NCBI GenBank assembly: GCA_030625695.1
Contig: DAOUQK010000001.1
Coordinates: 1-48,240 of the forward strand
Direction of reading: 5' to 3'
Length of the DNA: 48,240 bases
Source of the DNA: Paracoccaceae bacterium
GTDB taxonomy: Bacteria > Pseudomonadota > Alphaproteobacteria > Rhodobacterales > Rhodobacteraceae
The translations under genes were made by a program, and so were the position numbers. A model generated the notes under the pieces. That model searched no databases. It was not told where the DNA came from and saw nothing but the letters and a program-made list of their open reading frames with translations. Shown here in pieces: positions 15,345 through 27,579 of this stretch. How positions within the stretch are numbered: position 1 is the stretch's first letter; each line of letters opens with the position of its first letter.

Positions 15345-15758
15345 TCAGTCAAATTCAATCACGCCTTGTGGGTCGTGAATAATTGCATCGACAGATATTT
15401 CCACCATCATTCCGGGGGTTGTCAGCCCAGCCTCGACCGCCGTTGTGACTGGTAAAATGCCGTCGAACACTTCGCCATGGGCTTTGACAAATCCAGCCGC
15501 TGCGGCCTGCATATCCGAAAGAAACACGGTCGTTCGCACCACATGGCGCATGTCCGCGCCCACCTCTTTCAACGCGTCATCAATCCGCTTTAACGCGAAT
15601 ATTGTCTGCGCATACGCATCATTTGGCGCATGCAGCTTACCGCTTGGTTCTATCGCCGTGGTGCCGGCCACAAACACAAACGGGCCAACCCGCTTGGCCC
15701 GCGCATACGATCCGATTTCTTCAAACCGCCCGCCGGACTGGACAATCCGCAGGGTCAT
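15345..15758 (-). CDS. RidA/YjgF-family (reactive enamine/imine deaminase-like) protein; last gene of the BMC operon
   Basis: 137 aa. Its length and motifs (VFVAGTTAI, VVRTTVFL, VEISVDAI) fit the YjgF/RidA fold. An ATGA overlap joins it to the upstream MDH-like gene. Confidence 0.8.
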   Translation of the reverse strand: MTLRIVQSGGRFEEIGSYARAKRVGPFVFVAGTTAIEPSGKLHAPNDAYAQTIFALKRIDDALKEVGADMRHVVRTTVFLSDMQAAAAGFVKAHGEVFDGILPVTTAVEAGLTTPGMMVEISVDAIIHDPQGVIEFD

Positions 15759-16942
15759 TTCAGGCCCAAACGGACACGAATCGCATCGGCGGCAGCATGC
15801 AGGGCGGCGTGTTCGGTATCGGTAAGGGTCAGTTGTTCCACCTTCACCAGCCCGCTTTGACCCAGATGGGCGGGGACGCCCAGAACCACGCCGTTGACGC
15901 CAAATTCTCCTTCCAACATGACCGATACAGGCACCGGGCCGGTCCGCGCCCCGCGAATATGATCCAGCAATTCGACCGAAGAATGCGCCGGTGCAATCGT
16001 CGCCGACCCGGTCTTGCGCAAGGCAACAACCTGTCCGCCACCAGTGATCGCGTCCTTCACGCAGGCGTCAATCTGCTCTTGCGTAAGGTATATATCCAAC
16101 GGTCGCCCCTTGATGCGCGCATGCGACGGGATTGGCGCCATTTCATCGCCGTGGCTGCCCAGAGTAAACGCAGATACATCGCCCGGATTAACCCCGGCGG
16201 CCTGCGCCAAAGCATTACGGAACCGCGAGGAATCCAGCGTCCCGGCCATGCCCAAAACCCGTTCGCGGGGAAACCCCGTGGCGCGCAGCATTTCGACCGT
16301 CATTTCGTCCAGGGGGTTGGTCACCACAATCACAATCGCCCCGGGGGCCTGCGATTTGATCGCTTCGGCGGTGGAATGGATCACCCGCTTGTTGGTCTCG
16401 ATCAGGTCGGCCCGGGTCATCCCCGGACCGCGGGCGCGCCCCGCTGTCACCACAATGACCTCGGCTCCCGACACCATGTTCAGTGATGTGCCGCCAGTGA
16501 CCCGCGCACGGGTTCGGGTGATGCCGCTGGCGTGGTTGAGGTCCAGCGCGGTCGCTTCGGCGACGCCGGGTGCGATATCAATCAGGGCTATTTCATCGGC
16601 GATATCGGTATTGGCGGCAAGGTGGGCAATGTTGCTGCCAACGCCGCCCGCGCCAACCAGCGCGATTTTACTGAACCGTCTGGCACTTGGGGCTGGTTGT
16701 TTGCCGGGTGCCACCCATTTTGGCGATCGGCGGTAAAGGGCGCGGCGCATTGAGGTGGCACCATCGCTGCGCGCGGGCGTCGGCATTTCCAACGGCCCGT
16801 CCAGCAGTTTGATGCCATTACGTGCCGCCGTCTCAACCGCCAATGCGGTGACGATATCACCGGGTAAGACTTCGAACACCAGACGTCCACGCTGGCGCGC
16901 GTCCTCGATCAATTCCGAGCCTATGACACGCGGTTTGGCCAC
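15755..16942 (-). CDS. LDH-type malate/lactate dehydrogenase paralogue with a roughly 90-aa N-terminal extension
   Basis: Residues from about 92 show KIALVGAGGVGSNIAHL (Rossmann fold), DIAPGVAEATALDLNH and VVTAGRARGPGMTRADL, with Arg at the specificity position as in MDHs. They also show VTNPLDEMT, GMAGTLDSSRFR and LGSHGDEM (catalytic His). Residues 1-91 have no MDH/LDH counterpart. Confidence 0.8.
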   Translation of the reverse strand: MAKPRVIGSELIEDARQRGRLVFEVLPGDIVTALAVETAARNGIKLLDGPLEMPTPARSDGATSMRRALYRRSPKWVAPGKQPAPSARRFSKIALVGAGGVGSNIAHLAANTDIADEIALIDIAPGVAEATALDLNHASGITRTRARVTGGTSLNMVSGAEVIVVTAGRARGPGMTRADLIETNKRVIHSTAEAIKSQAPGAIVIVVTNPLDEMTVEMLRATGFPRERVLGMAGTLDSSRFRNALAQAAGVNPGDVSAFTLGSHGDEMAPIPSHARIKGRPLDIYLTQEQIDACVKDAITGGGQVVALRKTGSATIAPAHSSVELLDHIRGARTGPVPVSVMLEGEFGVNGVVLGVPAHLGQSGLVKVEQLTLTDTEHAALHAAADAIRVRLGLK

Positions 16943-17569
16943 TTAGGCGGCCTTTCCGTCGACCGCTTCAATCGCCGCCACCGCGGCGTCCATCCCGGCC
17001 TTGACTGAATCTTCTGAGCCGGAAATGAACAGGCGGCCATAGCGCCCCACCGCGCGGACCTCGACGATATCGATTTCCGAGGCCTTTTCGGCCTCATTCG
17101 CGGCGATAGAGATATAGGCCGCCGGGGCGCATTCGATGATACCAAGCGTCTGGCCCGGGACCAACAACGCACCCTTGCGCCATTTGTTAAGCAATTGCGC
17201 CTGATAGGGTTCGACCGAAGTGATGATCTGGGTGGTGCCGATATGCGGCTTGATCCGGTCGGCCATGGTAGCACCAAGTTCGTCCAGTATGGCATCCCTT
17301 GCGGCAGACACTTCGGCGTTTGACCGCGAACGAAGGATGAAGAACCCGAATTCCCGTTCCACTAATTGCGTCGTTGCCTCAACCGAACTGGCCTTTAGCG
17401 CCCGGTCAATCAGGGTGAACACACCGTTGCCGGGGGCAAATTCGCCGATCAGCACCGTGTCGCCCGAGAGCGGAACCGAGCCTTGCACGGTCGCGCCGTT
17501 ATAGGCGGCGAACTTGGGCTGCAGATTGTCGATCTGCATCAGGGCACGGATGATTATGTCGCTGCTCAT
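16943..17569 (-). CDS. BMC-T shell protein (tandem, EutL/PduB-like permuted BMC domains)
   Basis: 208 aa, consisting of two BMC-fold halves. The second half, TQIITSVEPYQAQLL...GIIECAPAAYISIAANEAEKASEIDIVEVRAVGRYGRLFISGSEDSVKAGMDAAVAAIE, parallels the EutL pattern (...[23 protein letters not shown]...FLTGSQAA...). Its stop abuts the next start. Confidence 0.8.
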   Translation of the reverse strand: MSSDIIIRALMQIDNLQPKFAAYNGATVQGSVPLSGDTVLIGEFAPGNGVFTLIDRALKASSVEATTQLVEREFGFFILRSRSNAEVSAARDAILDELGATMADRIKPHIGTTQIITSVEPYQAQLLNKWRKGALLVPGQTLGIIECAPAAYISIAANEAEKASEIDIVEVRAVGRYGRLFISGSEDSVKAGMDAAVAAIEAVDGKAA

Positions 17570-17572
17570 GGG

Positions 17573-18955
17573 TTATTCTCCGCCATATTCTTTGTAGATG
17601 TCGCGCCAGGGTCGGCTTTCATACGCCACCCGCTTGATATTGATCAGATGCAGGGCGGTGACATTGTCCGAGGTGATCGACCCCGACCAGGTGCCCGTGC
17701 CCAGCATGAAACTTGGTTCCAGATCGGTGGAATACCCCATGCCGCCCAGGATGCCGGGTGTGTTGACCAGAACGCGCCCCGTCGGCACGGAGGAAAATTG
17801 CGCAACAATTGACGGGTCGTCCGCGTGGATCACCGAGGAATGGCCCCAACCTTCGAATTTCGCGATGTTATGGGCAATCTCGATACCTTGATCGCTGTCA
17901 CGGGCCTCATAGAACGCCAATACCGGGTTCAGCTTTTCGGCTGAAAGGGGCCGGTGCCAGCCAATCTCGCTCTCCTCCGAAACCAGACAGCGGGTCCGGG
18001 GCGGGATTGAAAACCCGGCTGCGTCTGCCAGTGCCTGAGGCGATTGGCCGACGCGCTCGGGGTTCATCGCTTGCCGACCGTTAAAGATAACCTTAGCCAG
18101 ACGATCTGCCTCGGCAGGGGTGCAGAAATACGCACCCTTTAGTTTTAATTCATGGCGCAAATCACGGGCAATTTCACGGTCGGCAATAACCGCCTGTTCC
18201 GAAACGCAGGCCGTGCCATAGTCGAACGCCTTGGACATGACGATCATTTCAGCGACTTCACCTATGTCGTCCTTCTTGGACTTGTGAACATAACACGGCA
18301 CATTGCCGGCCCCTACGGCCAGTGTCGGTTTGCCCGAGGAATAGGCCGCCTTGACCATCGCCGGGCCACCCGTCGCCATGACCACCGAAGTGCGCCGGTG
18401 GCGCATTAACTCAGCCGTGCCTTGGATTGTCACCTCTTCCAGACATTGGATCAGCCCCTTGGGCGCACCCATTTGTTCGGCCACGTCGGCCATGATGCGT
18501 ACGGTTTCAATGCCACAGCGCACGCCGCGCGGGTGTGGCGCGCAAACAATGGCATTGCCGGCCTTTACCGCTGACAAAACCTTGAAAATGATGGTTGATG
18601 TAGGGTTGGTCACCGGCACCAAGGCGGCAACCACGCCCATCGGTTCGCCAAAGGCGGCGACTTTGGTGGCCTCATCGCTCCATAACATGCCCAACGTGGT
18701 CACATCACGCAGGTAATCCGCCACTGACAAAGCGTTGAACAGGTTTTTGACCCGCTTGTCTTCGACATTGCCGTATCCGGTTTCTTCCACCGCCAATTGA
18801 CCCAAGCGCAGCGCTTCTGGCTCAACGGCGCGGGCCATGGCATCAACAATGGCATCAACTTGTTTGGGGTCCGTGCCCAGAAACGCGCGGTATGCCTCAA
18901 ACGCGCTTTCGGCGCAGCGACGCGCGGCGGCGATTGATTTCAGGTCTGCGTCCAT
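17573..18955 (-). CDS. CoA-acylating aldehyde dehydrogenase (stand-alone AdhE-N-terminal type)
   Basis: 460 aa. By my recollection of the AdhE sequence it aligns from residue 1 with the aldehyde-dehydrogenase half of AdhE. Shared motifs are QLAVEETGYGNVEDK, PVTNPTST, GAGNVPCYV, FDYGTACVSEQ (catalytic Cys) and HLINIKRVA. Confidence 0.85.
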   Translation of the reverse strand: MDADLKSIAAARRCAESAFEAYRAFLGTDPKQVDAIVDAMARAVEPEALRLGQLAVEETGYGNVEDKRVKNLFNALSVADYLRDVTTLGMLWSDEATKVAAFGEPMGVVAALVPVTNPTSTIIFKVLSAVKAGNAIVCAPHPRGVRCGIETVRIMADVAEQMGAPKGLIQCLEEVTIQGTAELMRHRRTSVVMATGGPAMVKAAYSSGKPTLAVGAGNVPCYVHKSKKDDIGEVAEMIVMSKAFDYGTACVSEQAVIADREIARDLRHELKLKGAYFCTPAEADRLAKVIFNGRQAMNPERVGQSPQALADAAGFSIPPRTRCLVSEESEIGWHRPLSAEKLNPVLAFYEARDSDQGIEIAHNIAKFEGWGHSSVIHADDPSIVAQFSSVPTGRVLVNTPGILGGMGYSTDLEPSFMLGTGTWSGSITSDNVTALHLINIKRVAYESRPWRDIYKEYGGE

Positions 18956-20148
18956 TACCGTGTCCCTGCTGCAATTGCGTCCATCACCCTGCGGGCGCTG
19001 TCGATGTCACTGGCTTCGATACCGATAGTTTCAAGGCGCCGACCTGCGGCGGCGACATCCGCGCCCAAAATGCTGGACGCCAATGTGACCATCGACTGCG
19101 TTACCGGCACGTCAACGCCTGCCAGCTTCGCGGCAGAGATCAGCGGCACAAACGACCCGATCACCCCGTCGCGCATAAGAGTATTCGCGGCCTTCTGATC
19201 AGGGATACCTCGCGCGCCCGCGCCGCGTAGCGCGCCTGCGTGGATCCGCACCCAAGCGTCCGTATCCGGCAAGTTTCGCAGGCCAAAGGCCTGCGCCACC
19301 AAACGCCGTTCCTGCGCCAGACGATTAATCACCGCCCTGTGCTGTGTCCCAATAAGCGAAGCGAACGTTGCATTTTCATCCAATGCCACCCCGCCCATCG
19401 GCACAGGCGCGCCAGCGCCTTCCAACCCCGGACCGCCCAACAGCAAAGCAGGCAATTCCACCAAGGCAGAGCCGTCGGCAAAGCCGCTTTCCAACACCGA
19501 TGCCTGTTCTACCAGATCCGGTAAATACCGCGCCAACCCGCGCAATACGTCCGAGCGCCCGCGCGGCAAGGTCGCGGCAGCGACCGGGCCAACAGCGGAA
19601 AGCGTCAGTGTCGCGCCGGTTTCGGAGATCCAATACGGCAAGCCTTGGGCTTCGACCAAAGTGATATCCGCCGTACAACCACCGATGCGTAACATCCAGG
19701 CGGCCTCAAGCGCGCCCAGCGAGCGCCCCGGGGCCAGAACCAACACCTGACCATCTTGCAGATGATCCGCCAGAACCATCGCATAGGTGCGCATTTTGTG
19801 CACCGGACCGGTCAGGAAAATCACATCGGCCTTGGCCACCGCTCCGTCCAGTTCCGCCGTGGTACGAATAGAAGGCCCCGCGTCGCGATCCACCGCATAG
19901 GTGCCAACCGGCCCGTCGCCGCGAATGGTCACGCCGCTTGAGGCGCGCAACATCTGCACCTCGGCGCCGTAGGCCGAAAACAACGTTACATCCGCGCCCT
20001 CGGCCAGGCACAACGCCGCCAAAAGACGCCCTTCGACCCCGCCGCCAAGCACTGCGACACGGGACAATTCTGGCGCGTTTATCGCCACCCTTGTCCCGCC
20101 GCTTACTTTAGCAACCGCTTCTGTGAATTCCTCAAATCCGCCAGCCAT
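18955..20148 (-). CDS. Opine (octopine/nopaline) dehydrogenase-family-like NAD(P) oxidoreductase with an N-terminal amphipathic extension
   Basis: 397 aa. RVAVLGGGVEGRLLAALCLAEGADVTLF is a Rossmann fold. The middle and C-terminal region (LAPGRSLGALE, ...ENATFASLIGTQHRAVINRLAQERRLVAQAFGL...) resembles the Octopine_DH domain. The family call rests on motif recollection only. Confidence 0.55.
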   Translation of the reverse strand: MAGGFEEFTEAVAKVSGGTRVAINAPELSRVAVLGGGVEGRLLAALCLAEGADVTLFSAYGAEVQMLRASSGVTIRGDGPVGTYAVDRDAGPSIRTTAELDGAVAKADVIFLTGPVHKMRTYAMVLADHLQDGQVLVLAPGRSLGALEAAWMLRIGGCTADITLVEAQGLPYWISETGATLTLSAVGPVAAATLPRGRSDVLRGLARYLPDLVEQASVLESGFADGSALVELPALLLGGPGLEGAGAPVPMGGVALDENATFASLIGTQHRAVINRLAQERRLVAQAFGLRNLPDTDAWVRIHAGALRGAGARGIPDQKAANTLMRDGVIGSFVPLISAAKLAGVDVPVTQSMVTLASSILGADVAAAGRRLETIGIEASDIDSARRVMDAIAAGTR

Positions 20149-20165: not shown

Positions 20166-20474
20166 CTAGTCCGCAGACCCGGACCCTAGTGCGTCGAGAA
20201 TGCCTTCAAGTTCATCATGTGGCCGTGCGATCACGTGCACCGATACTACATCGCCGATCTTGTTGGCGGCTGTGGCCCCGGCATCGGTCGCCGCCTTCAC
20301 CGCCCCGACTTCACCGCGCACCAGCGTGGTGATCAGACCGCCGCCGGCTTTGGTTTGGCCCAGAATTGTCACGCTGGCCGCTTTGACCATCGCATCCGCC
20401 GCCTCGATCGAGGCGACGAGGCCACGGGTTTCGATCATTCCAAGGGCCATCTGGCCCGCTGCTGGTTTTGCCAT
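20166..20474 (-). CDS. BMC-H shell protein (hexamer, PduA/EutM-like)
   Basis: 102 aa: [77 protein letters not shown]. This is a near-canonical BMC domain. The edge Lys (AMVK) and the RPH Arg are present, and the pore loop is KAGGGL as in EutM. Confidence 0.95.
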
Positions 20475-20494: not shown

Positions 20495-20770
20495 TTATTT
20501 TTTCTTTGATATCGTAATGTGTTCAACGATTGCGATGATGCATGCATCAATCGGCACCCCGGCCAGCCCGGCGGGCAGACGCGCACCAGAACCGGTCACG
20601 ATCATCACAGTATCGCCAACGCCAGCACCGCAGGTATCAGCCGCCACCACCGACGGCTCCAACACTTTGCCGGACCCGTCAATAATGTCGCATAACAACA
20701 GCTTATGACCGGTCAGTTGGGCTTCTTTGGCCGTCGCTGTGACCGTGCCGATGACTTTTGCCACTCGCAT
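20495..20770 (-). CDS. BMC-P vertex protein (pentamer, EutN/CcmL/PduN family)
   Basis: 91 aa: MRVAKVIGTVTATAKEAQLTGHKLLLCDIID...AADTCGAGVGDTVMIVTGSGAR...PIDACIIAIVEHI. It parallels EutN (MKLAVVTGQIVCTV...KLLMVEMID...GAGTGEWVLLVSGSSAR). Its start shares nt 20770 with the stop of the GS-like gene. Confidence 0.9.
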   Translation of the reverse strand: MRVAKVIGTVTATAKEAQLTGHKLLLCDIIDGSGKVLEPSVVAADTCGAGVGDTVMIVTGSGARLPAGLAGVPIDACIIAIVEHITISKKK

Positions 20771-22065
20771 TAGAAATTATCCCGATAACGGTCGATTTCC
20801 ACCTGCGTCACTTGCTGGGAAAAGAACTCCAACTCGCGTTCGCTCTGCTGGCAGGCCAGTTCCCACATGTCGTCGCCCATCACGCCCCTGAGCCAGTCCG
20901 ACCCTCGCGCCAATGCAATGGCGTCGCGCAGGTCAGTGGGGATGGGGGCGGCATCTTCGACCTCGTAGCCATTGCCGGTGGTCATCTCAGAAGGTTCAAT
21001 GCCCTGTTCGATGCCGTCAAGACCGGCGGCAATATCACTTGCCAACAGGAAATACGGATTGCAATCGGCCCCTGCATCGCGCTTTTCCACCCGAACGGCG
21101 CTGTCATTACCTTCAATCACCCGCAGGCCAACGGTGCGGTTATCCAGCCCCCAGGTCGTGTTGATCGGACAGAAGGTATATGGCTGGCGGCGACGATAGC
21201 CGTTGACCGTGGCACTGCCGCAAATCGAGGCTTCGGCCATGCGTTTCTGCATGCCGCCAACAAAATGACGGCCCGTTTGGTTCAACTTGCCATTGTCGGC
21301 AAAGACGTTCTTGCCGTCTTTCCATAGCGAATAGTGGCAGTGAAACCCGTTGCCGGAATCCTCATAAAACGGCTTGGCCATAAAGGTCGCTTTATAGCCA
21401 TGCGCGCCTGCCAGTTGTTTGACCAGGGAACGGAACATCACCACCCGGTCCGCCGACAGTAACGCCTCGTCGAAGCGTACATTCACTTCGACCTGGCCGG
21501 CCGCGTATTCCGGGTTTGATTGCTCAATCGGAATGCCACATTCGTTGATCTGGGTGCGGATTGGGCCAAGCACATGTTCAAGCTCTGCCGCCCTCTCAAG
21601 CCCATAAACCTGAATGCCGGAATCCCTCGGTTTGCCGGTTTCGGGATCAAGCAGATAGAATTCCAATTCGGTCCCGACCTGAACCTCAAACCCCATGTCA
21701 GCCGCGCGTTTCACCTGACGCTCAAGCATTGGGCGCGGGTCAATCGGTACTTGCTTGTGATTCATCCCCTCGGCGCGGGCAAAACACATGGCCACGCCCG
21801 GCTCCCACGGCAGGGCGACCGGTTTGGTCATCGGGAACATGTGCATGTCGGGATAACCGTTGTCGAAATTGACATACGGCGTGTCCCAGACGTCGCAGGT
21901 CATATCAATGGCGAAAAGGGCGAGCGAGTAGGCATTGCCATTATTGCAAATGTTCTCCCAATGGCTGGCCGGAATACGCTTGCCGCGCATAATGCCGTTC
22001 AGGTCTCCAAGGCCCAGAATTACCGTATGTGTTCCCTCGGGTAACGTGAAATCAGTTGACGTCAA
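20770..22065 (-). CDS. Glutamine-synthetase-family enzyme (candidate gamma-glutamyl-amine synthetase, GmaS/PuuA-like); first gene of the BMC operon
   Basis: GS catalytic motifs are present: GTELEFYLL, NPEYAAGQVEVN, ATFMAKP, GNGFHCHYSLW, NGYRRR, WGLDNRTVGLRV, RVEKRDAGADCNPYF. The track start at 22080 is a TTG sitting inside a GGGAGG Shine-Dalgarno sequence. I prefer the TTG at 22065, 7 nt after that sequence, but the start remains uncertain. Confidence 0.85.
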   Translation of the reverse strand: MTSTDFTLPEGTHTVILGLGDLNGIMRGKRIPASHWENICNNGNAYSLALFAIDMTCDVWDTPYVNFDNGYPDMHMFPMTKPVALPWEPGVAMCFARAEGMNHKQVPIDPRPMLERQVKRAADMGFEVQVGTELEFYLLDPETGKPRDSGIQVYGLERAAELEHVLGPIRTQINECGIPIEQSNPEYAAGQVEVNVRFDEALLSADRVVMFRSLVKQLAGAHGYKATFMAKPFYEDSGNGFHCHYSLWKDGKNVFADNGKLNQTGRHFVGGMQKRMAEASICGSATVNGYRRRQPYTFCPINTTWGLDNRTVGLRVIEGNDSAVRVEKRDAGADCNPYFLLASDIAAGLDGIEQGIEPSEMTTGNGYEVEDAAPIPTDLRDAIALARGSDWLRGVMGDDMWELACQQSERELEFFSQQVTQVEIDRYRDNF

Positions 22066-22103
22066 GATGCAACCTCCCAATTGCTTATGGTCTTGCGTTT
22101 AGT

Positions 22104-22138
22104 TGTATTCTGTATACAGTATTCAAAAATACAGTCAA
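22104..22138. promoter_or_regulatory. Operator/promoter B in the divergent region between the BMC operon and the flavoenzyme gene
   Basis: Tandem heptads TGTATTC-TGTATAC-AGTATTC (22104-22124) contain the palindrome CTGTATACAG (22110-22119). On the minus strand a -35-like TTGACT (22133-22138) lies 16 nt upstream of TATACA (22111-22116). Confidence 0.55.
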
Positions 22139-22169
22139 CAGCACCAAAACGACAAGGACGATTTTGATC

Positions 22170-23309
22170 ATGGCACCCAGCAACATCATTGTCGTGGGCG
22201 GTGGTATTGCCGGTACGATGACGGCGCTTGAACTTCAGCGCAAGGGTGAACAGGTGACGCTGATCGACCGGTGGGAACCGGGGCATTCGCGGGCCTCTTC
22301 AACCGATTACAACCGGGTGATCCGGGCGATTTCCGGACGGGACGAATTCTATACCAAATGGGCGCGGGAAAGCCGGTTGCGGTGGTTGGAACTTCAGGCC
22401 GAAAGTGGCCAGAATCTGATGTATGAATGCGGTGCTTTGATCCTGGCCACCGAGGGCCATTGCGATTGGGAAGACGCGACAAGTCAGACCTTCGACAAGC
22501 TTGGCGTGCCTTATTACAAGTATTCGCAGTCGGAAATTCAGCAAAGATTTCCCCAGTTTCGCGTGCCCGACATCGGCTATGCCCTGTTCGAACCCGAGGC
22601 GGGCATGCTGATGGCGCACCGCTGTGTTCTGACCGGGATCGACCTGTTCAAACGCGCGGGCGGCGTGGTGAAACGGGGCCGCGTGACCACCGATGGGTCC
22701 GAGCGGCCGATGCTGGATGGCAAGCTGCTTGAGGCGGATGTTATCATCATCGCCACTGGCCCGTGGATGTCAGATATGTTCCCGCGCACCATTAAGCCGA
22801 TCACCACAGTGATTGGTGTCAATGTGATCTATACCTCGACCCCCGACGGGTCGGACGCATTTGACATGGAAAACATGCCCTGCTGGATTGATCATGGGCG
22901 TAGTTCGTTTGGCCTGCCGTCGTCCGAAGGGTCGGGCGTCAAGGCGGCTGTGGTTATCCCTGACAAGATCGACCTTGATAACGACGAACGCCTGATCCGG
23001 CGTGAATGTCTAAGCCGCACCCGCAGTTATATCGAACACCGCTTCCCGGGGTTGGTGGGCGAAAAGGTGGTAGATTCCAAGTTCAACCAGATCATCCTGA
23101 CGCCAGATACGCATTTCATTGTCGACTGGCACCCCGAGCATGACAATGTTCTTTTCGCGGGGGGCTGTTCCGGGCATCTGTTCAAACACGCGCCCGTATT
23201 CGGCAGCTTTGTGGCCGGGGTCGCGGTTGGGGACTATGGCACGGCCGACCGGTTCAAGGTTGCCAACCGACGCAAACTTAGCCCGAAAGAAAGCCCGTCA
23301 GGACGATAA
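22170..23309 (+). CDS. Monomeric sarcosine-oxidase-like (MSOX/DAO family) FAD-dependent secondary-amine oxidoreductase
   Basis: ORF 22056..23309. The preferred start is ATG 22170, with an AAGGA Shine-Dalgarno sequence upstream. MAPSNIIVVGGGIAGTMTALEL is a GxGxxG motif. GHSRASSTDYNRVIR...RLRWLELQ matches the MSOX/SolA pattern. GGCSGHLFK resembles the region carrying the covalent-flavin Cys in MSOX-type enzymes; that point is tentative. Confidence 0.8.
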   Translation: MAPSNIIVVGGGIAGTMTALELQRKGEQVTLIDRWEPGHSRASSTDYNRVIRAISGRDEFYTKWARESRLRWLELQAESGQNLMYECGALILATEGHCDWEDATSQTFDKLGVPYYKYSQSEIQQRFPQFRVPDIGYALFEPEAGMLMAHRCVLTGIDLFKRAGGVVKRGRVTTDGSERPMLDGKLLEADVIIIATGPWMSDMFPRTIKPITTVIGVNVIYTSTPDGSDAFDMENMPCWIDHGRSSFGLPSSEGSGVKAAVVIPDKIDLDNDERLIRRECLSRTRSYIEHRFPGLVGEKVVDSKFNQIILTPDTHFIVDWHPEHDNVLFAGGCSGHLFKHAPVFGSFVAGVAVGDYGTADRFKVANRRKLSPKESPSGR

Positions 23310-23639
23310 ATCGGCGTAATGTGCCGCGTTCGGGCAGTCATAAGGATCAAACGCGCCTTCATTTCCGGCCAGAAATGCTTTGCATTCCTTGGACTTTTCA
23401 CAGGTTGTACAGGCTAGGACAATCTCTAACGCGCGCCAGCGGGTGGCGTCGATAACTTTGCCGGTGACGCCGAAATGTGCTGCCATCGCCTCCATCTGGT
23501 TACGCACCCCGGGGCGGGCATTGGCAAATGTTGCAATGTCTTCGCGCGATACGGACAGATCGGCGCAAAGCCGGTCGAGTTCCTGCGATGTCAGAATCCT
23601 TTTACGGGCCCTGTCAAACAACCCTAGTAATCCAGTCAT
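23298..23639 (-). CDS. Small Cys-motif protein (DUF6455-like), function unknown
   Basis: 113 aa with a strong AGGAGG Shine-Dalgarno sequence 9 nt upstream. C-x2-C-x5-C-x2-FL...CPN (CTTCEKSKECKAFLAGNEGAFDPYDCPN) matches my recollection of DUF6455 proteins of Rhodobacterales. Its 3' end overlaps the convergent flavoenzyme gene by 12 bp. Confidence 0.6.
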   Translation of the reverse strand: MTGLLGLFDRARKRILTSQELDRLCADLSVSREDIATFANARPGVRNQMEAMAAHFGVTGKVIDATRWRALEIVLACTTCEKSKECKAFLAGNEGAFDPYDCPNAAHYADLSS

Positions 23640-23698
23640 GCGGCTATCCTCCTGATTGCGACGCTAAAGTCTGAAAGACTGCAAGACTTTGAGGCAGA

Positions 23699-24391
23699 TC
23701 AATTTACCGGCGCGCCACGCAGTAATTTAGCCGCTTCCTTGGCCATCAGATCAACCAGCACGTCGCCAGAAACGACAGACGCCAGCCGGTCTTTGGTCTC
23801 GACAGGGGATTGTTGATCGCCTGCGTTTTTTTCAATCGCATGAGTAATAAATGCGCGGGTGAATTCCGGGTGGAATTGCACCGACATGGCCGGGAAATCA
23901 TAGGCCAGAACGCCAAACGGACAATAATCAGCACCGCCCAGAACCCTGGCCCCGGGTGGTACTTTTATCACCTGATCGCGGTGCCAGACATGGGCATCAA
24001 CGTCTTTCCCGTTCACCTTAAAGCGCCGCACGCCAACCACTTCGCCCAAACCGGCCAGTTCTGCCTTGCCGCCATAAACCTCGGCCATGAATTGATGAGC
24101 GAAACAGATACCGAAAACCGGAGCCGCCTGCGCCTTTGCTTCCAGCAAGAAGGTGCGCAAACGCCCCAACCAAGGCATATCATCATAAACGCCCTTCTCG
24201 GACCCACTCAGTACAAATCCGTCAAAATCGCCAACCTGCGGCACCGGCGTGCCAGCCGTTACTTCGATCACCGTCAGTTCATCACCCGGCATCGCCGGGG
24301 CCAGCCATTCGCGGATTGTGCGGCCTACGTGTTTGCCGCCGCCGATGTCTTCGGGCAGGTCGGTCAGGTTCAGGATGGCAATCCTTACCAA
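23699..24391 (-). CDS. Class I glutamine amidotransferase-fold protein (candidate gamma-glutamyl-amide hydrolase)
   Basis: 230 aa. The nucleophile elbow GICFAHQ and the His/Glu pair in QFHPE are present. The TTG start overlaps the upstream stop (GATTGGTAA). Confidence 0.8.
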   Translation of the reverse strand: MVRIAILNLTDLPEDIGGGKHVGRTIREWLAPAMPGDELTVIEVTAGTPVPQVGDFDGFVLSGSEKGVYDDMPWLGRLRTFLLEAKAQAAPVFGICFAHQFMAEVYGGKAELAGLGEVVGVRRFKVNGKDVDAHVWHRDQVIKVPPGARVLGGADYCPFGVLAYDFPAMSVQFHPEFTRAFITHAIEKNAGDQQSPVETKDRLASVVSGDVLVDLMAKEAAKLLRGAPVN

Positions 24392-25806
24392 TCGAACACC
24401 CGGTCAATTCCGGCCATCTTGACGCCAGTAAAGGCTGATGCCTGAAACGACAGCGCGCGCAGGTCTTCGACCTCAAGATTATGCACCGAAGACTTGCCGC
24501 AGGCCTTGGCCAGCGCCGTCATCTCCATGGTCATCGCCGTCAGATACCGCGCCACCCGCTCGGCCCCCGCCGCCGGATTCATGCGTTTTTCCAACTCAGG
24601 ATCCTGCGTTGCAATTCCCACCGGGCAACGCCCGGTATGGCAATGGTGACACGCGCCCGGAGAGGTTCCAAGCGCCTCATAATCCTCAAGATAGCGCGGT
24701 GAATTACACCCCGCCGCAATCATCGCGCCATTGCCGATCATCACTGCATCGGCACCCAGTGCGATGCACTTGGCCGCGTCCACTCCGGTGCGGATACCGC
24801 CCGCAACCACCAGCGTTACCTTGCCCGACATGCCACAGTCATCCAGTGCTTCGCGGCCCGCGCGAATGGCGCTCATGGTTGGCACACCGGTATGGTTCAA
24901 CAGCATCTCGGGCGACGCACCTGTGCCACCTTCGGCCCCATCCAGAACCACCACATCCGCACCCGCCTTGGCCGCAACGGCCACGTCGAACCGGGGGCGG
25001 GTCGCGCCCATCTTGATAAAGATCGGCACCTGGTAATTGGTGGCAATACGTAGTTCTTCGATCTTGACCGCAAGGTCGTCGGCACCCAGGAAATCCGGGT
25101 GACGGATGGTTGATCTTTGATCAACCCCTTCTGGCAAGGTGCGCATTTCAGACACCCTCGGGCTGACCTTCATGCCCAACAGCAAGCCGCCAGTGCCGGG
25201 CTTGGCCCCTTGCCCTACAACAATCTCAATCCCGTCGGCGCGGCGCAGATGGTCCAGATCAACGCCATAACGCGCCGGGGACATCTGATAGACCAGCCGT
25301 TGCGAGGCTTCGCGCTCTTCCTCAAGCATCCCGCCTTCGCCAGTGCAGGTCATTGTGCCCGCTTTGGACGCGCCATAGCCCAAAGACGCCTTGGCTGACG
25401 CCGACAACGCACCAAACGACATCGACGCGATATAGATCGGGATTTTCAACTCGATCGGCTTTTCAACCAAGCCACGTCCACCGCCCAAAATGGTCGTGGT
25501 ATCGCAGGTTTCGCGGTATCCTTCCAACGGCAACCGCGTCATGGTGGCCGGCACAAAGGTCAGATCATCAAACGTCGGCAATTGCTGGTTGAACGAGTTA
25601 TAGCCGCGCACCTGGTAGCGGCCCAATTGCGCCAATGCGTGCACTTCGGCAATCGAATCCGGGTCCCAGCGGGCCGAACCACCCTTGGCATATGATGCGG
25701 GCACCCCGGCGGGGCGGCCCTCAACAGCACCGTCACCAAATTTGATCTCGGCCTCATCGGCCATTTCGAACGGGTATTCATACGGTTTGTTCAGATCATG
25801 AGCCAT
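24385..25806 (-). CDS. FMN-binding glutamate-synthase-domain protein (GlxD/MgsC-like)
   Basis: 473 aa. ASMSFGALS, VVGQGAKPGTGG, VVLDGAEGGTGASP and VVAGGIRTG are hallmarks of the GltS FMN domain. A CHHCHTGRCPVG Cys cluster is also present. Confidence 0.9.
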   Translation of the reverse strand: MAHDLNKPYEYPFEMADEAEIKFGDGAVEGRPAGVPASYAKGGSARWDPDSIAEVHALAQLGRYQVRGYNSFNQQLPTFDDLTFVPATMTRLPLEGYRETCDTTTILGGGRGLVEKPIELKIPIYIASMSFGALSASAKASLGYGASKAGTMTCTGEGGMLEEEREASQRLVYQMSPARYGVDLDHLRRADGIEIVVGQGAKPGTGGLLLGMKVSPRVSEMRTLPEGVDQRSTIRHPDFLGADDLAVKIEELRIATNYQVPIFIKMGATRPRFDVAVAAKAGADVVVLDGAEGGTGASPEMLLNHTGVPTMSAIRAGREALDDCGMSGKVTLVVAGGIRTGVDAAKCIALGADAVMIGNGAMIAAGCNSPRYLEDYEALGTSPGACHHCHTGRCPVGIATQDPELEKRMNPAAGAERVARYLTAMTMEMTALAKACGKSSVHNLEVEDLRALSFQASAFTGVKMAGIDRVFDW

Positions 25807-26483
25807 GCGTTTGCATCCCTGCTTTCAAAATACCAAAGCCGTTGGCCCGAGATCATCTTGCGCCAGTCGCGCGATGTATCCACCAGCCCCAAAGGCTCTA
25901 AAATTGCGTCCACCTCGGCCACTTCTTCGGCGTTCGGTTCAATGGTTTCCACATCGACGCCGACGCTTTCAACCGGGCCGGCAACCCAGACTTCGCCTTG
26001 CCACAAGGCATCCGCACAGCTTTCGCCAGCCCCGCCCAAGGCGATAATCCGCCCGGAATGTGCCATGAAACCGGACTGATAGCCGATTTTTCCTTCGACC
26101 ACGATATTGCCGCCCTTCATCGCCACACCAACCCGCGGGCCGGCGTCTCCTTTGACGTGAATGGTGCCGCCCATCATCGCCGCCCCGCAGGACATGCCGC
26201 AATAGCCACCGACGGTGATCATGCCATCCGACATGCCTTCGCCCAAGGCCCAACCGGCGTTGCGTTCGATATTGATCGTGGCACCTGTGTTCAACCCGCC
26301 GCAGAAATAACCAACCGAGCCTTCGAAATGCAGGTCAGCGCCGGGCGGCAGGCCGATGCCAAGGTTATGGCGCGACAGGGTGTTGGTCACCCGGATTTTG
26401 TCACCGGCTTTGGCCGCTGTCTGCATGTCCTGATTAATCTCGCGGATATGGCGTTGGCTGACGTCGATAATGACTTCACTCAT
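25791..26483 (-). CDS. GXGXG-motif beta-helix protein (glutamate synthase C-terminal-domain-like, GlxC/MgsB-like)
   Basis: 230 aa with repeated Gly-rich turns (GSVGYFCGGL, VGGYCGMSCG, MGGTIHVKGDAG, MKGGNIVVEG). An ATGA overlap joins it to the upstream amidotransferase gene. Confidence 0.85.
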   Translation of the reverse strand: MSEVIIDVSQRHIREINQDMQTAAKAGDKIRVTNTLSRHNLGIGLPPGADLHFEGSVGYFCGGLNTGATINIERNAGWALGEGMSDGMITVGGYCGMSCGAAMMGGTIHVKGDAGPRVGVAMKGGNIVVEGKIGYQSGFMAHSGRIIALGGAGESCADALWQGEVWVAGPVESVGVDVETIEPNAEEVAEVDAILEPLGLVDTSRDWRKMISGQRLWYFESRDANAWLMI

Positions 26484-27424
26484 GCGGCCAGACTCCGGTT
26501 GCCGACGCCCCAGATGCCCATCAGGCTGGGACCGTCGTGATTGATAACATCTTCTTCGCCGGTGAACACACGGCGCACCGCCTGTTCTTCGGTCGCCACT
26601 GCCAGATCGCCATTCTTGTCGATCACCACCAGTGGTTTCATCGCAAACCGGTCTTTGGCAAAGCCAATGCCGTCGGGACGCGCAATCATATAGGTGAACA
26701 CGCCGTCGATTGAGGTGATGGATTTACGCAACGCCTGCTCCATGCTTAGCCCTGCCTTGATCTGGTCCGATACCCAAACCGCAATCAGTTCGGAATCGTT
26801 TTCGGTCAGGAAACGATAGCCCCGCCGCTCCAGCTTGTCCCGCCAGGTAAAATAATCGGTGATCTGGCCGTTATGCACAATCGCCACGTCCGAAAACGGT
26901 CGTGCCCAGAATGGGTGGCTGGCATTGGGCAACACCGAACTTTCCGTAGCCAGCCGCGCATGGCCAAGCCCGTGGGTGCCGATCATGTCGCGCACCCCGT
27001 GTTTGTCAGCCACTTCGACCGCGCTGCCGGTGTCTTTGATGATTTCCAACGACCGCCCGCAGGACTGGATTTCGATCCGGTCGGTCAGAGTGTCGGCGTC
27101 TTTGATCCAAGCGGTCAAGTCACGCGGATCGCTGATTTCCATGCGAAAACAATAATGTGCATTTTGGTCTGTGGTTATCTGTGGCTCGCTCAGAAAATCC
27201 GATCCATGACCCCGCAACACATGGGTAAAACCATCCAGATCACTGTCCATCGACGATTTGTCAAACCCCATGCCGCGTAGGGTGTAGCCGGTTTCGCGGG
27301 GTTCCGTGTAGATCGCAAAACCGGTACTGTCGGCACCACGATGCCTTTGCGCATCCATCAGTTCGACCAAATCGTGCCCGACCTTGCCTGGCGCATTCAA
27401 AATCCGACCAGCGATTCCACACAT
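26480..27424 (-). CDS. Class II (Ntn) glutamine amidotransferase-domain protein (GlxB/MgsA-like)
   Basis: ORF 26480..27493. Starting at ATG 27424 (GAGGGGA Shine-Dalgarno sequence upstream) gives MCGIAGRIL..., with the Ntn nucleophile Cys directly after Met. Confidence 0.85.
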   Translation of the reverse strand: MCGIAGRILNAPGKVGHDLVELMDAQRHRGADSTGFAIYTEPRETGYTLRGMGFDKSSMDSDLDGFTHVLRGHGSDFLSEPQITTDQNAHYCFRMEISDPRDLTAWIKDADTLTDRIEIQSCGRSLEIIKDTGSAVEVADKHGVRDMIGTHGLGHARLATESSVLPNASHPFWARPFSDVAIVHNGQITDYFTWRDKLERRGYRFLTENDSELIAVWVSDQIKAGLSMEQALRKSITSIDGVFTYMIARPDGIGFAKDRFAMKPLVVIDKNGDLAVATEEQAVRRVFTGEEDVINHDGPSLMGIWGVGNRSLAA

Positions 27425-27445
27425 GACATTCCCCTCGAAAGTGTT

Positions 27446-27478
27446 TGTATACAGTATACCGTATTCACTTAAGTTCAA
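27446..27478. promoter_or_regulatory. Operator/promoter C between the GlxBCD-like operon and the GntR gene
   Basis: Tandem heptads TGTATAC-AGTATAC-CGTATTC (27446-27466) contain TGTATACAGTA. On the minus strand a -35-like TTGAAC (27473-27478) lies 16 nt upstream of TACTGT. Extra ATACAG half-sites sit at 27522-27536. Confidence 0.55.
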
Positions 27479-27579
27479 GGCGATTCTTAACAACCTGCTT
27501 TATTGTACTCTGGATTCAGGATACAGAAATACAGAAGACTCTGCAAATTCATGCGCAAATTCACGACAAGAGGCCCGCA

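Follow-up and report, generated by a model that had tools for sequence, protein, structure and literature searches.

How might a metabolosome whose locus encodes no alcohol dehydrogenase recover its NAD+, and how might the enzyme that does so be brought to the shell? Both questions are raised by a bacterial microcompartment (BMC) locus from a Paracoccaceae bacterium (Alphaproteobacteria; Rhodobacterales; Rhodobacteraceae), which lies on contig DAOUQK010000001.1 of assembly GCA_030625695.1; the whole stretch analysed, positions 1 to 48,240, is referred to below as the window. The locus contains an open reading frame of 395 amino acids (15755-16942, minus strand, as are all features of the operon described here) whose product resembles malate dehydrogenase (MDH) and lactate dehydrogenase (LDH), and whose first 90 codons (16673-16942) encode an N-terminal extension. 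The original prediction, made from the sequence alone, was that this is an MDH/LDH paralogue and a possible NAD+ recycler that replaces the alcohol dehydrogenase of canonical metabolosomes. Our analysis favours, with a probability of roughly 55%, a reading in which residues 4-50 would dock this diverged MDH paralogue on the shell of a MIC2-type microcompartment, where the enzyme would reoxidise NADH with oxaloacetate.

The evidence for docking begins with the similarity of the extension to the N-terminus of EutQ. A profile built from the MDH extensions only, and run with hmmsearch against 1.84 billion representative proteins, gave 55 matches at E≤1e-3, most of which belong to the same family or are fragments of it. 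Among the others are two proteins (P0171, 351 aa, E 3.2e-4; P0174, 304 aa, E 4.3e-4) that match in their N-terminal 49-61 residues and carry a C-terminal EutQ domain (PF06249), three small proteins with two or three copies of the module and no Pfam family (P0164, P0168 and P0169, from loci L084 and L085) and two single-module proteins (P0172 and P0175). When compared with authentic EutQ by hhalign, extension columns 4-49 aligned with residues 2-48 of the Escherichia coli protein (28% identity, E 0.0027, probability 11%), and a broader MDH-only hidden Markov model (HMM) of 107 sequences gave residues 1-60 of E. coli EutQ 26.4 bits (single-target E 2e-10), a score reached by 0 of 2000 composition-preserving shuffles, the best of which gave 12.4 bits. 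Because the Pfam EutQ model spans only residues 85-232 of E. coli EutQ, the similarity falls on the non-cupin N-terminus of that protein, and on this profile evidence residues 4-50 are homologous to EutQ 2-48, outside the EutQ cupin domain. A EutQ or cupin domain was matched neither by the MDH-like protein as a whole nor by residues 1-89, even at E≤10; the protein is thus not a member of the EutQ family and shares with it the N-terminal module alone. Little was added by a word-indexed protein search with a mixed module alignment (A4), whose matches were mostly fragments of EutQ, truncated or frameshifted.

Other carriers of the module are themselves linked to microcompartments. The gene for P0174 sits among BMC shell genes, a PduS-like gene and genes for a PduO-type adenosyltransferase and a phosphotransacylase (PTAC), that for P0169 adjoins a tandem-BMC gene, and that for P0164 adjoins an EutQ-cupin gene; three further matches (P0163, P0167 and P0173), to repeat-rich and to solute-binding proteins, have no EutQ-like or MDH-like context. 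In each MIC2 locus the module HMM finds exactly one significant copy, always on the MDH. Judged by these profiles, the EutQ-N-like module recurs in other microcompartment-linked proteins. The original prediction had associated the N-terminal pattern with accessory proteins of BMC loci and left the family to be named by an HMM and structure-prediction search; the homology to EutQ and the position of module carriers beside shell and EutQ genes bear out that association, and such a search leads to the EutQ family through P0171 and P0174 (E 3-4e-4) and predicts a folded module for residues 1-50. Weak matches of P0168 and P0169 to the E3_binding (peripheral-subunit-binding) domain were also seen, over a helix of the form ITPxARxxAxxxGI. 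A suspected kinship of the module with the N-terminal domain of BMC-associated PduO-type adenosyltransferases (Pfam Co_AT_N) is not supported, the one example compared (L082, 4012-4773) scoring 0.2 bits, which 224 of 2000 shuffles also reached.

What this part of EutQ does has recently been determined by Yang et al. (2025, Sci Adv, PMC12487888), who reported that the N-terminus of Salmonella EutQ bridges shell and cargo. Its H1/H2 region binds the Eut shell and its H3/H4 region (62-99) binds the encapsulation peptides of cargo; deletion of residues 9-41 (H1/H2) separates shell from cargo, and residues 1-99 alone send GFP to the microcompartment (PMC12487888). EutQ and the MDH-like protein, both of them BMC-associated, each begin with a module of about 47 residues that is followed by a flexible region, and the two modules share the pattern V-I-[TG]-x-x-x-[IV]-x-x-A-x-x-x-G...[IV]-[IV]-T-x-x-A-R-[ED]-x-A-x-x-x-G-[IFL]; the partner differs, being a dehydrogenase here and a cupin acetate kinase in EutQ. 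The extension of the MDH-like protein is homologous to the H1/H2 part of EutQ only, and docking on the shell is the most economical proposal for it.

A canonical encapsulation peptide, such as that of PduP, PduD or EutC, consists of an amphipathic helix of about 18 residues and a linker. The extension is comparable in that it is an N-terminal add-on absent from non-BMC homologues and is joined to the enzyme by a poorly ordered linker, but its module is of about 47 residues and is predicted to be folded, with two helices and four short strands, and its 'linker' holds a conserved motif. By homology, the MDH module would also bind the shell directly, whereas the EutC peptide binds an adaptor, the H3/H4 region of EutQ.

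The domain structure of the extension is consistent with a distinct module. Residues 1-89 gave no match to Pfam or NCBIfam, even at E≤10, and the region ahead of the catalytic part therefore has no MDH or LDH counterpart, as had been supposed from its sequence. In AlphaFold2 (AF2) models residues 1-50 adopt a beta-alpha-beta-beta-alpha-beta arrangement, with predicted local distance difference test (pLDDT) values of 75-89 when the whole protein is modelled and of 82-93 when the extension is modelled by itself, while residues 51-90 have values of 46-67 and contain no helices, only a low-confidence beta-hairpin. The proposed shell-docking module, residues 4-50, is encoded by 16793..16933. What follows it had been described as a Pro/Ala/Arg-rich linker, and this holds for residues 80-90 (16673..16705), which are basic, poorly conserved by column and lead into the Rossmann strand, but not for residues 59-79 (16706..16768), which carry a strongly conserved basic motif, TDGxTxxRRxLYRRSPKWxAP (pLDDT 54-67). 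In an alignment of 26 extensions, from members less than 85% identical to one another, R67, L69, R71, R72, W76 and P79 of this motif are invariant, and the motif is retained in the distant members P0144, P0149, P0152 and P0154; it may serve as a short linear motif for partner binding. When the PDB was searched with a sequence profile of the extension, a chance match only came up (8i5z, E 1.5), and a Foldseek search of the PDB with the extension model found nothing better than E 0.63, with Cas1 and ribosomal proteins at poor TM-scores; in these searches the modelled module resembles no solved structure. Conserved residues of the module include I30, T32, A35 and E37. At residues 34-36 (16834-16842) the window encodes LAV-E where most orthologues have LAR-E, with an Arg that matches the conserved A-R-E/D of EutQ-type modules, so that the protein is substituted here at a position that is commonly kept.

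An N-terminal extension of this kind may also arise from a mis-called start, with true translation beginning near residue 65 or 90, and the start codon of the window, GTG (16940..16942), and an internal Met at residue 65 would both be in keeping with such an artefact. Comparison across loci makes this hardly credible. The equivalent codon, far upstream of the catalytic part, is ATG in 77 of 80 related loci. In 69 of the 80 the start of the MDH gene overlaps, by 1 or 4 nt, the stop of the upstream shell gene, which encodes a tandem-domain BMC-T protein, and in 4 it abuts that stop. The GTG of the window abuts the TAA stop of the BMC-T gene (16943-16945) and is preceded, 8 nt upstream, by a Shine-Dalgarno-like GGAAAGG (16951-16957); near residue 90 there is no start codon. 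When the window is compared with eleven loci, 29-42 of the extension's 90 codons show synonymous changes only and 15-41 a change of residue, a mix similar to that of the catalytic part, and residues 4-50 are conserved to the same degree as the enzyme part, with 25 invariant columns in the 26-sequence alignment of the extension. The best 120 database relatives are full-length orthologues of 392-399 aa, with 74-94% identity and 96-100% query coverage. When one genome per species was scanned, the extension turned up in 80 genomes, which belong to the Rhodobacterales, Hyphomicrobiales and Geminicoccaceae and, among the Gammaproteobacteria, to the Granulosicoccaceae, Halioglobus and a Chromatiales symbiont. 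Given the conserved ATG, the overlap with BMC-T, the synonymous codon differences and the confident AF2 fold of residues 1-50, the mis-called start fails and the 90-residue extension can be taken as genuine; these comparative data indicate that it is translated, conserved and under purifying selection, and that the stop-start overlap of the BMC-T and MDH genes follows the pattern of translational coupling.

The remainder of the protein, residues 91-395 (15758..16672), is a complete LDH-type MDH, in agreement with the original prediction. Residues 92-231 match Pfam Ldh_1_N (E 8e-36) and residues 235-387 match Ldh_1_C (E 1e-22), and the NCBIfam model NF004863, 'malate dehydrogenase', is passed with 314.9 bits against a cut-off of 283, whereas the score for the equivalog TIGR01763 (269) lies below its cut-off of 351.85. 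The stretches KIALVGAGGVG, AGRARGPGMTR and GSHGDE, in which a Rossmann motif, an Arg at the substrate-specificity position and the catalytic His had been recognised by eye, do align with the Rossmann motif, R102/R109 and H195 of solved MDHs. Alignments to 4plh, 4ros and the mdh product of Ruegeria sp. TM1040 show that the equivalents of R102, R109, D168, R171 and H195 are all kept; GRARGPGMTR falls opposite GIPRKPGMSR, and the LDSSRFR and GSHGD motifs also align. In Foldseek comparisons the protein is 33-40% identical to solved LDH-like MDH and LDH structures, with TM-scores of 0.81-0.88 relative to the target.

The closest comparison is with the LDH-like (type 3) MDHs of Chloroflexus aurantiacus (4cl3), Methylobacterium extorquens (4ros) and Ruegeria sp. 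TM1040, with which the window protein shares the fold (TM-score 0.84-0.88), the Rossmann motif and the R102/R109/D168/R171/H195 set, at 38-40% identity by Foldseek or BLASTP. It differs from them in its 90-residue extension, in the setting of its gene, which belongs to a BMC operon and does not lie near sucCD, and in its substrate loop, which reads GRARGPGM (GRARxPGM across the family, with an extra conserved Arg) instead of the canonical G[IV]PRKPGM, that is GVPRKPGM or GIPRKPGM. The housekeeping comparison was made with the TM1040 mdh, the DNA of the source genome that was examined being the window only. That gene lies near sucC and sucD and encodes a protein of 320 aa, which starts MARPKIALIGAG, just 4 residues ahead of the Rossmann strand, and passes both TIGR01763 (424.6 against 351.85) and NF004863. 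Since the window protein is 74-94% identical to MIC2-type proteins of many roseobacter genera and 40% identical to the TM1040 mdh product, it belongs to a separate, BMC-dedicated lineage; by these sequence comparisons it is a diverged paralogue and not an orthologue of the housekeeping roseobacter mdh, as the call of an MDH/LDH paralogue had implied, and we infer that the source genome also holds a housekeeping mdh. A distant member of the family, P0154 (395 aa), keeps the extension and the catalytic His but has lost the GxxRxPGMxR substrate loop and most of the Rossmann and loop consensus; from its sequence it may be without catalytic activity and have a purely structural part.

The locus in which this gene resides corresponds to a microcompartment type that is already catalogued. 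The MIC2 type was defined from 22 loci by Sutter et al. (Sutter, Melnicki, Schulz, Woyke & Kerfeld 2021, Nat Commun 12:3809, Supplementary Data 2, PMC8217296), who listed for it an aldehyde dehydrogenase (AldDH) without an encapsulation peptide, an LDH/MDH of pfam02866, a protein like 6-phosphogluconate dehydrogenase (6PGDH) with a short N-terminal helix and a glutamine synthetase (GS) of pfam00120, together with a shell of a single BMC-H, a single BMC-P and a single BMC-Tdp protein, in Alpha- and Gammaproteobacteria. They also noted on the MIC2 LDH/MDH an N-terminal extension of about 70 aa, assigned to the 'EutQ/cupin-like superfamily' with a possible role in ligand binding, and found the extension to be confined to LDH/MDH proteins in a BMC context (PMC8217296).

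Each of these components was found in the window. Read in the direction of transcription, the operon encodes a GS homologue of pfam00120 that resembles gamma-glutamyl-amine ligases (20770..22080; Pfam Gln-synt_C, E 7e-91; its NCBIfam scores for type III GS and for gamma-glutamylputrescine synthetase are both under the cut-offs), a BMC-P (EutN/CcmL) vertex protein (20495..20770; Pfam EutN_CcmL, E 3e-25), a BMC-H shell protein (20166..20474; Pfam BMC, E 1e-25), a 6PGDH/opine-dehydrogenase-like oxidoreductase (18955..20148; weak Pfam matches to Octopine_DH, NAD_Gly3P_dh_N and F420_oxidored), an acylating AldDH of pfam00171 (17573..18955; TIGR02518, 506.9 bits, residues 2-456 against model positions 1-454), the tandem-domain, CcmP-like BMC-T (16943..17569; Pfam BMC; NCBIfam CcmP, 201.5 bits, residues 6-207), the MDH-like protein and a RidA-family protein (15345..15758; Pfam Ribonuc_L-PSP). 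The AldDH has no N-terminal extension or encapsulation peptide in any of 66 orthologues, its N-terminus starting within the conserved domain, and the 6PGDH-like protein begins with a conserved FE[ED]FxEA helix and, ahead of its Rossmann strand, a variable linker of about 15 residues (64 orthologues), which is similar to an encapsulation peptide. The LDH/MDH domain starts at residue 92, behind the extension, and the shell set is the minimal one of BMC-H, BMC-P and a tandem CcmP-like BMC-T. Because every feature that defines MIC2 is present, the locus is, as far as its sequence goes, a further member of the published type, with the same enzymes, shell proteins and taxa and no essential difference. 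Ruegeria sp. ANG-R, a shell protein of which is catalogued as MIC2 (PMC8217296), carries the same locus as the window (L018). With regard to the earlier description, the difference is that the similarity of the extension maps here to the non-cupin N-terminus of EutQ, and this H1/H2 assignment, itself drawn from profiles, refines the 'EutQ/cupin-like' label of 2021.

The arrangement of the genes is conserved as well. By tblastn, the MDH gene has BMC-T upstream and RidA downstream in all 80 loci, and no locus of sufficient length lacks any of the remaining core genes. The 6PGDH-like and AldDH genes share base 18955, the BMC-T and MDH genes abut, and the MDH stop codon (15755-15757) overlaps the RidA start by 4 nt (ATGA); with such overlapping or adjoining stop and start codons along the core operon, shell and cargo are probably translated in tight coupling. 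The closest relative locus (L002; JAKITO010000020.1, Rhodobacteraceae metagenome-assembled genome D96SM.bin.44) has the same gene order, with proteins 81-97% identical, which places the window in a closely related marine Rhodobacteraceae genome. Beyond RidA the operon continues with a LivK-type binding protein and its permease and ATPase genes. In the upstream flank (22056-27493) a gene for a DAO-family flavoenzyme diverges from the operon, and beyond it are a class-I amidotransferase, with a weak match to Peptidase_C26, and a glutamate-synthase-like trio (GATase2, GXGXG and FMN), the latter present in about half of the 80 loci; the flank also encodes a DUF6455 protein. We take this set, namely the GS-like ligase, DAO-family oxidase, class-I amidotransferase, glutamate-synthase-like trio, RidA and amino-acid-type ABC transporter, to resemble the Puu (gamma-glutamyl-amine) and N-methylglutamate pathways. 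The gene content suggests that the substrate of MIC2 may be an amine, from which the aldehyde would arise, and the coupling of RidA points to a pathway intermediate that is an imine or enamine.

On the docking and recycling reading, the module of residues 4-50 would attach the dehydrogenase to the inner face of the shell, through BMC-H and/or the co-translated BMC-T, and so lead to its encapsulation, standing in for the short amphipathic encapsulation peptide of most cargo. BMC-T as the docking partner would be compatible with the coupling of the two genes, and BMC-H is equally possible. The acylating AldDH would make NADH inside the shell, and the MDH-like enzyme would reoxidise it by converting oxaloacetate, or a similar 2-oxo-dicarboxylate, to malate. 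In the LDH/MDH family R102 selects dicarboxylic substrates such as oxaloacetate. A role for the MDH-like enzyme in NAD+ recycling is plausible, given the retention of R102, the lack of genes for an alcohol dehydrogenase and a PTAC in the locus, and the NADH that the AldDH yields. There are precedents for this proposal, an LDH/MDH-family protein being predicted to supply the alcohol dehydrogenase (NAD+-regenerating) function in the PVM type, with MIC1 discussed likewise, in the catalogue of Axen et al. (2014, PMC4207490), in which the PVM prediction is cited from Erbilgin et al. (2014). PVM (PvmO) and MIC1 have in common with the window an LDH/MDH-family protein in a locus without a standard alcohol dehydrogenase, for which NAD+ regeneration is proposed; PVM differs in that reports of a EutQ-N-like extension are limited to MIC1 and MIC2, and Sutter et al. 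(2021, PMC8217296) provide separate LDH/MDH HMMs for a PVM/EUT group and a MIC1/2 group.

Several points weigh against this reading. The homology to authentic EutQ is weak, as the identity and hhalign probability given above indicate, and when the extension and E. coli EutQ were compared pairwise by BLASTP, the only match was a spurious one of 9 residues within the cupin, so that profiles are needed to detect the homology. The H3/H4 cargo-binding helices of EutQ are without counterpart in the MDH, which has the basic RRxLYRRSPKW motif instead, and the work on EutQ H1/H2 used EutM and EutL, whereas MIC2 has a CcmP-like BMC-Tdp and not EutL. Oxaloacetate and malate would have to pass across the shell, and the substrate may not be oxaloacetate, since the loop reads GRARG in place of GVPRK or GIPRK. 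Finally, the 6PGDH/opine-dehydrogenase-like enzyme, with an encapsulation-peptide-like helix of its own, could equally well be the recycler, and the MDH-like protein could be a pathway enzyme.

This last point leads to the strongest of the other explanations, in which the extension does target the protein to the microcompartment, the MDH-like protein acts within the pathway on a specific 2-hydroxy or 2-oxo acid, and NAD+ is regenerated by the 6PGDH/opine-dehydrogenase-like protein or outside the shell. The score below the MDH equivalog cut-off, the 40% identity to the housekeeping mdh, the altered GRARxPGM loop with its extra conserved Arg and the presence of a second NAD(P) oxidoreductase in the core locus would all be expected of it, and the invariable, translationally coupled RidA hints at imine or 2-oxoacid chemistry. 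Set against these are the conservation of R102, the absence from the locus of any other obvious NADH sink and the PVM and MIC1 precedents, in which the recycler role falls to an LDH/MDH-family protein, and we consider it possible but clearly the less probable account. A more elaborate proposal makes the MDH-like enzyme itself the adaptor between shell and cargo in MIC2: an oligomer bearing several EutQ-type modules would nucleate a core of cargo, the motif of residues 59-79 would recruit partners, and docking at the gated pore of BMC-Tdp would allow a shuttle of malate and oxaloacetate across the shell. It starts from the facts that MIC2 is without EutQ and that its AldDH is without an encapsulation peptide, and takes the tetramer by analogy with LDH-like MDHs; we regard it as speculative and rather improbable.

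Two further explanations concern the extension alone. With a start near residue 65 or 90 already set aside, it could be a EutQ/cupin-superfamily domain with a ligand-binding or regulatory function, which senses a pathway metabolite, in line with the comment of Sutter et al. (2021) in Supplementary Data 2 (PMC8217296), and such a function would give the conserved motif of residues 59-79, which is without an assigned role, a possible place. The idea is weakened by the lack of a cupin match on the extension; moreover, the similarity is to EutQ 2-48, outside the Pfam EutQ/cupin model, the AF2 module of about 47 residues is too small for a cupin barrel, and the homologous region of EutQ is reported to bind shell proteins and not small ligands (PMC12487888), all of which leaves a sensing domain doubtful. 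The extension might instead serve oligomerisation, in the manner of the N-terminal arm of vertebrate LDH; it would then stabilise the tetramer and have no part in targeting. Arms of this kind in LDH sit just ahead of the Rossmann fold, where the conserved basic motif 59-79 is also found, and the low pLDDT of that motif in the monomer model is as expected of a segment that becomes ordered only in a complex. An arm would, however, leave unexplained the EutQ-N homology of residues 4-50 and the presence of the module in unrelated BMC-linked proteins, and it sits poorly with the restriction of the extension to BMC contexts (Sutter et al., PMC8217296) and the BMC locus found in 80 of 80 loci; as an account of the whole extension it is very unlikely, although such a role may apply to the motif of residues 59-79.

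Much of the groundwork for the docking and recycling reading has already been published, the extension in 2021 for MIC2 and the idea of an LDH/MDH recycler in 2014 for PVM and MIC1, and since the basic observation and the recycler idea are thus in the literature the gain made here is incremental. In the literature we found no experimental work on MIC2 or on roseobacter microcompartments beyond these 2014 and 2021 catalogues. New here, and drawn from sequence comparison, are the assignment of the extension to the H1/H2 shell-binding module of EutQ, the recurrence of that module in BMC-linked proteins, and the comparative evidence on the start codon, the coupling to BMC-T and the paralogy of the enzyme. 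The module on the MDH might also offer an alternative targeting tag for engineered shells. MIC2 is a widespread microcompartment of marine proteobacteria, represented here in 80 genomes, and the kinship of its dehydrogenase extension with the shell module of EutQ would provide a testable route to understanding how cargo may be packaged in metabolosomes without classical encapsulation peptides and how NAD+ may be regenerated in them without an alcohol dehydrogenase.

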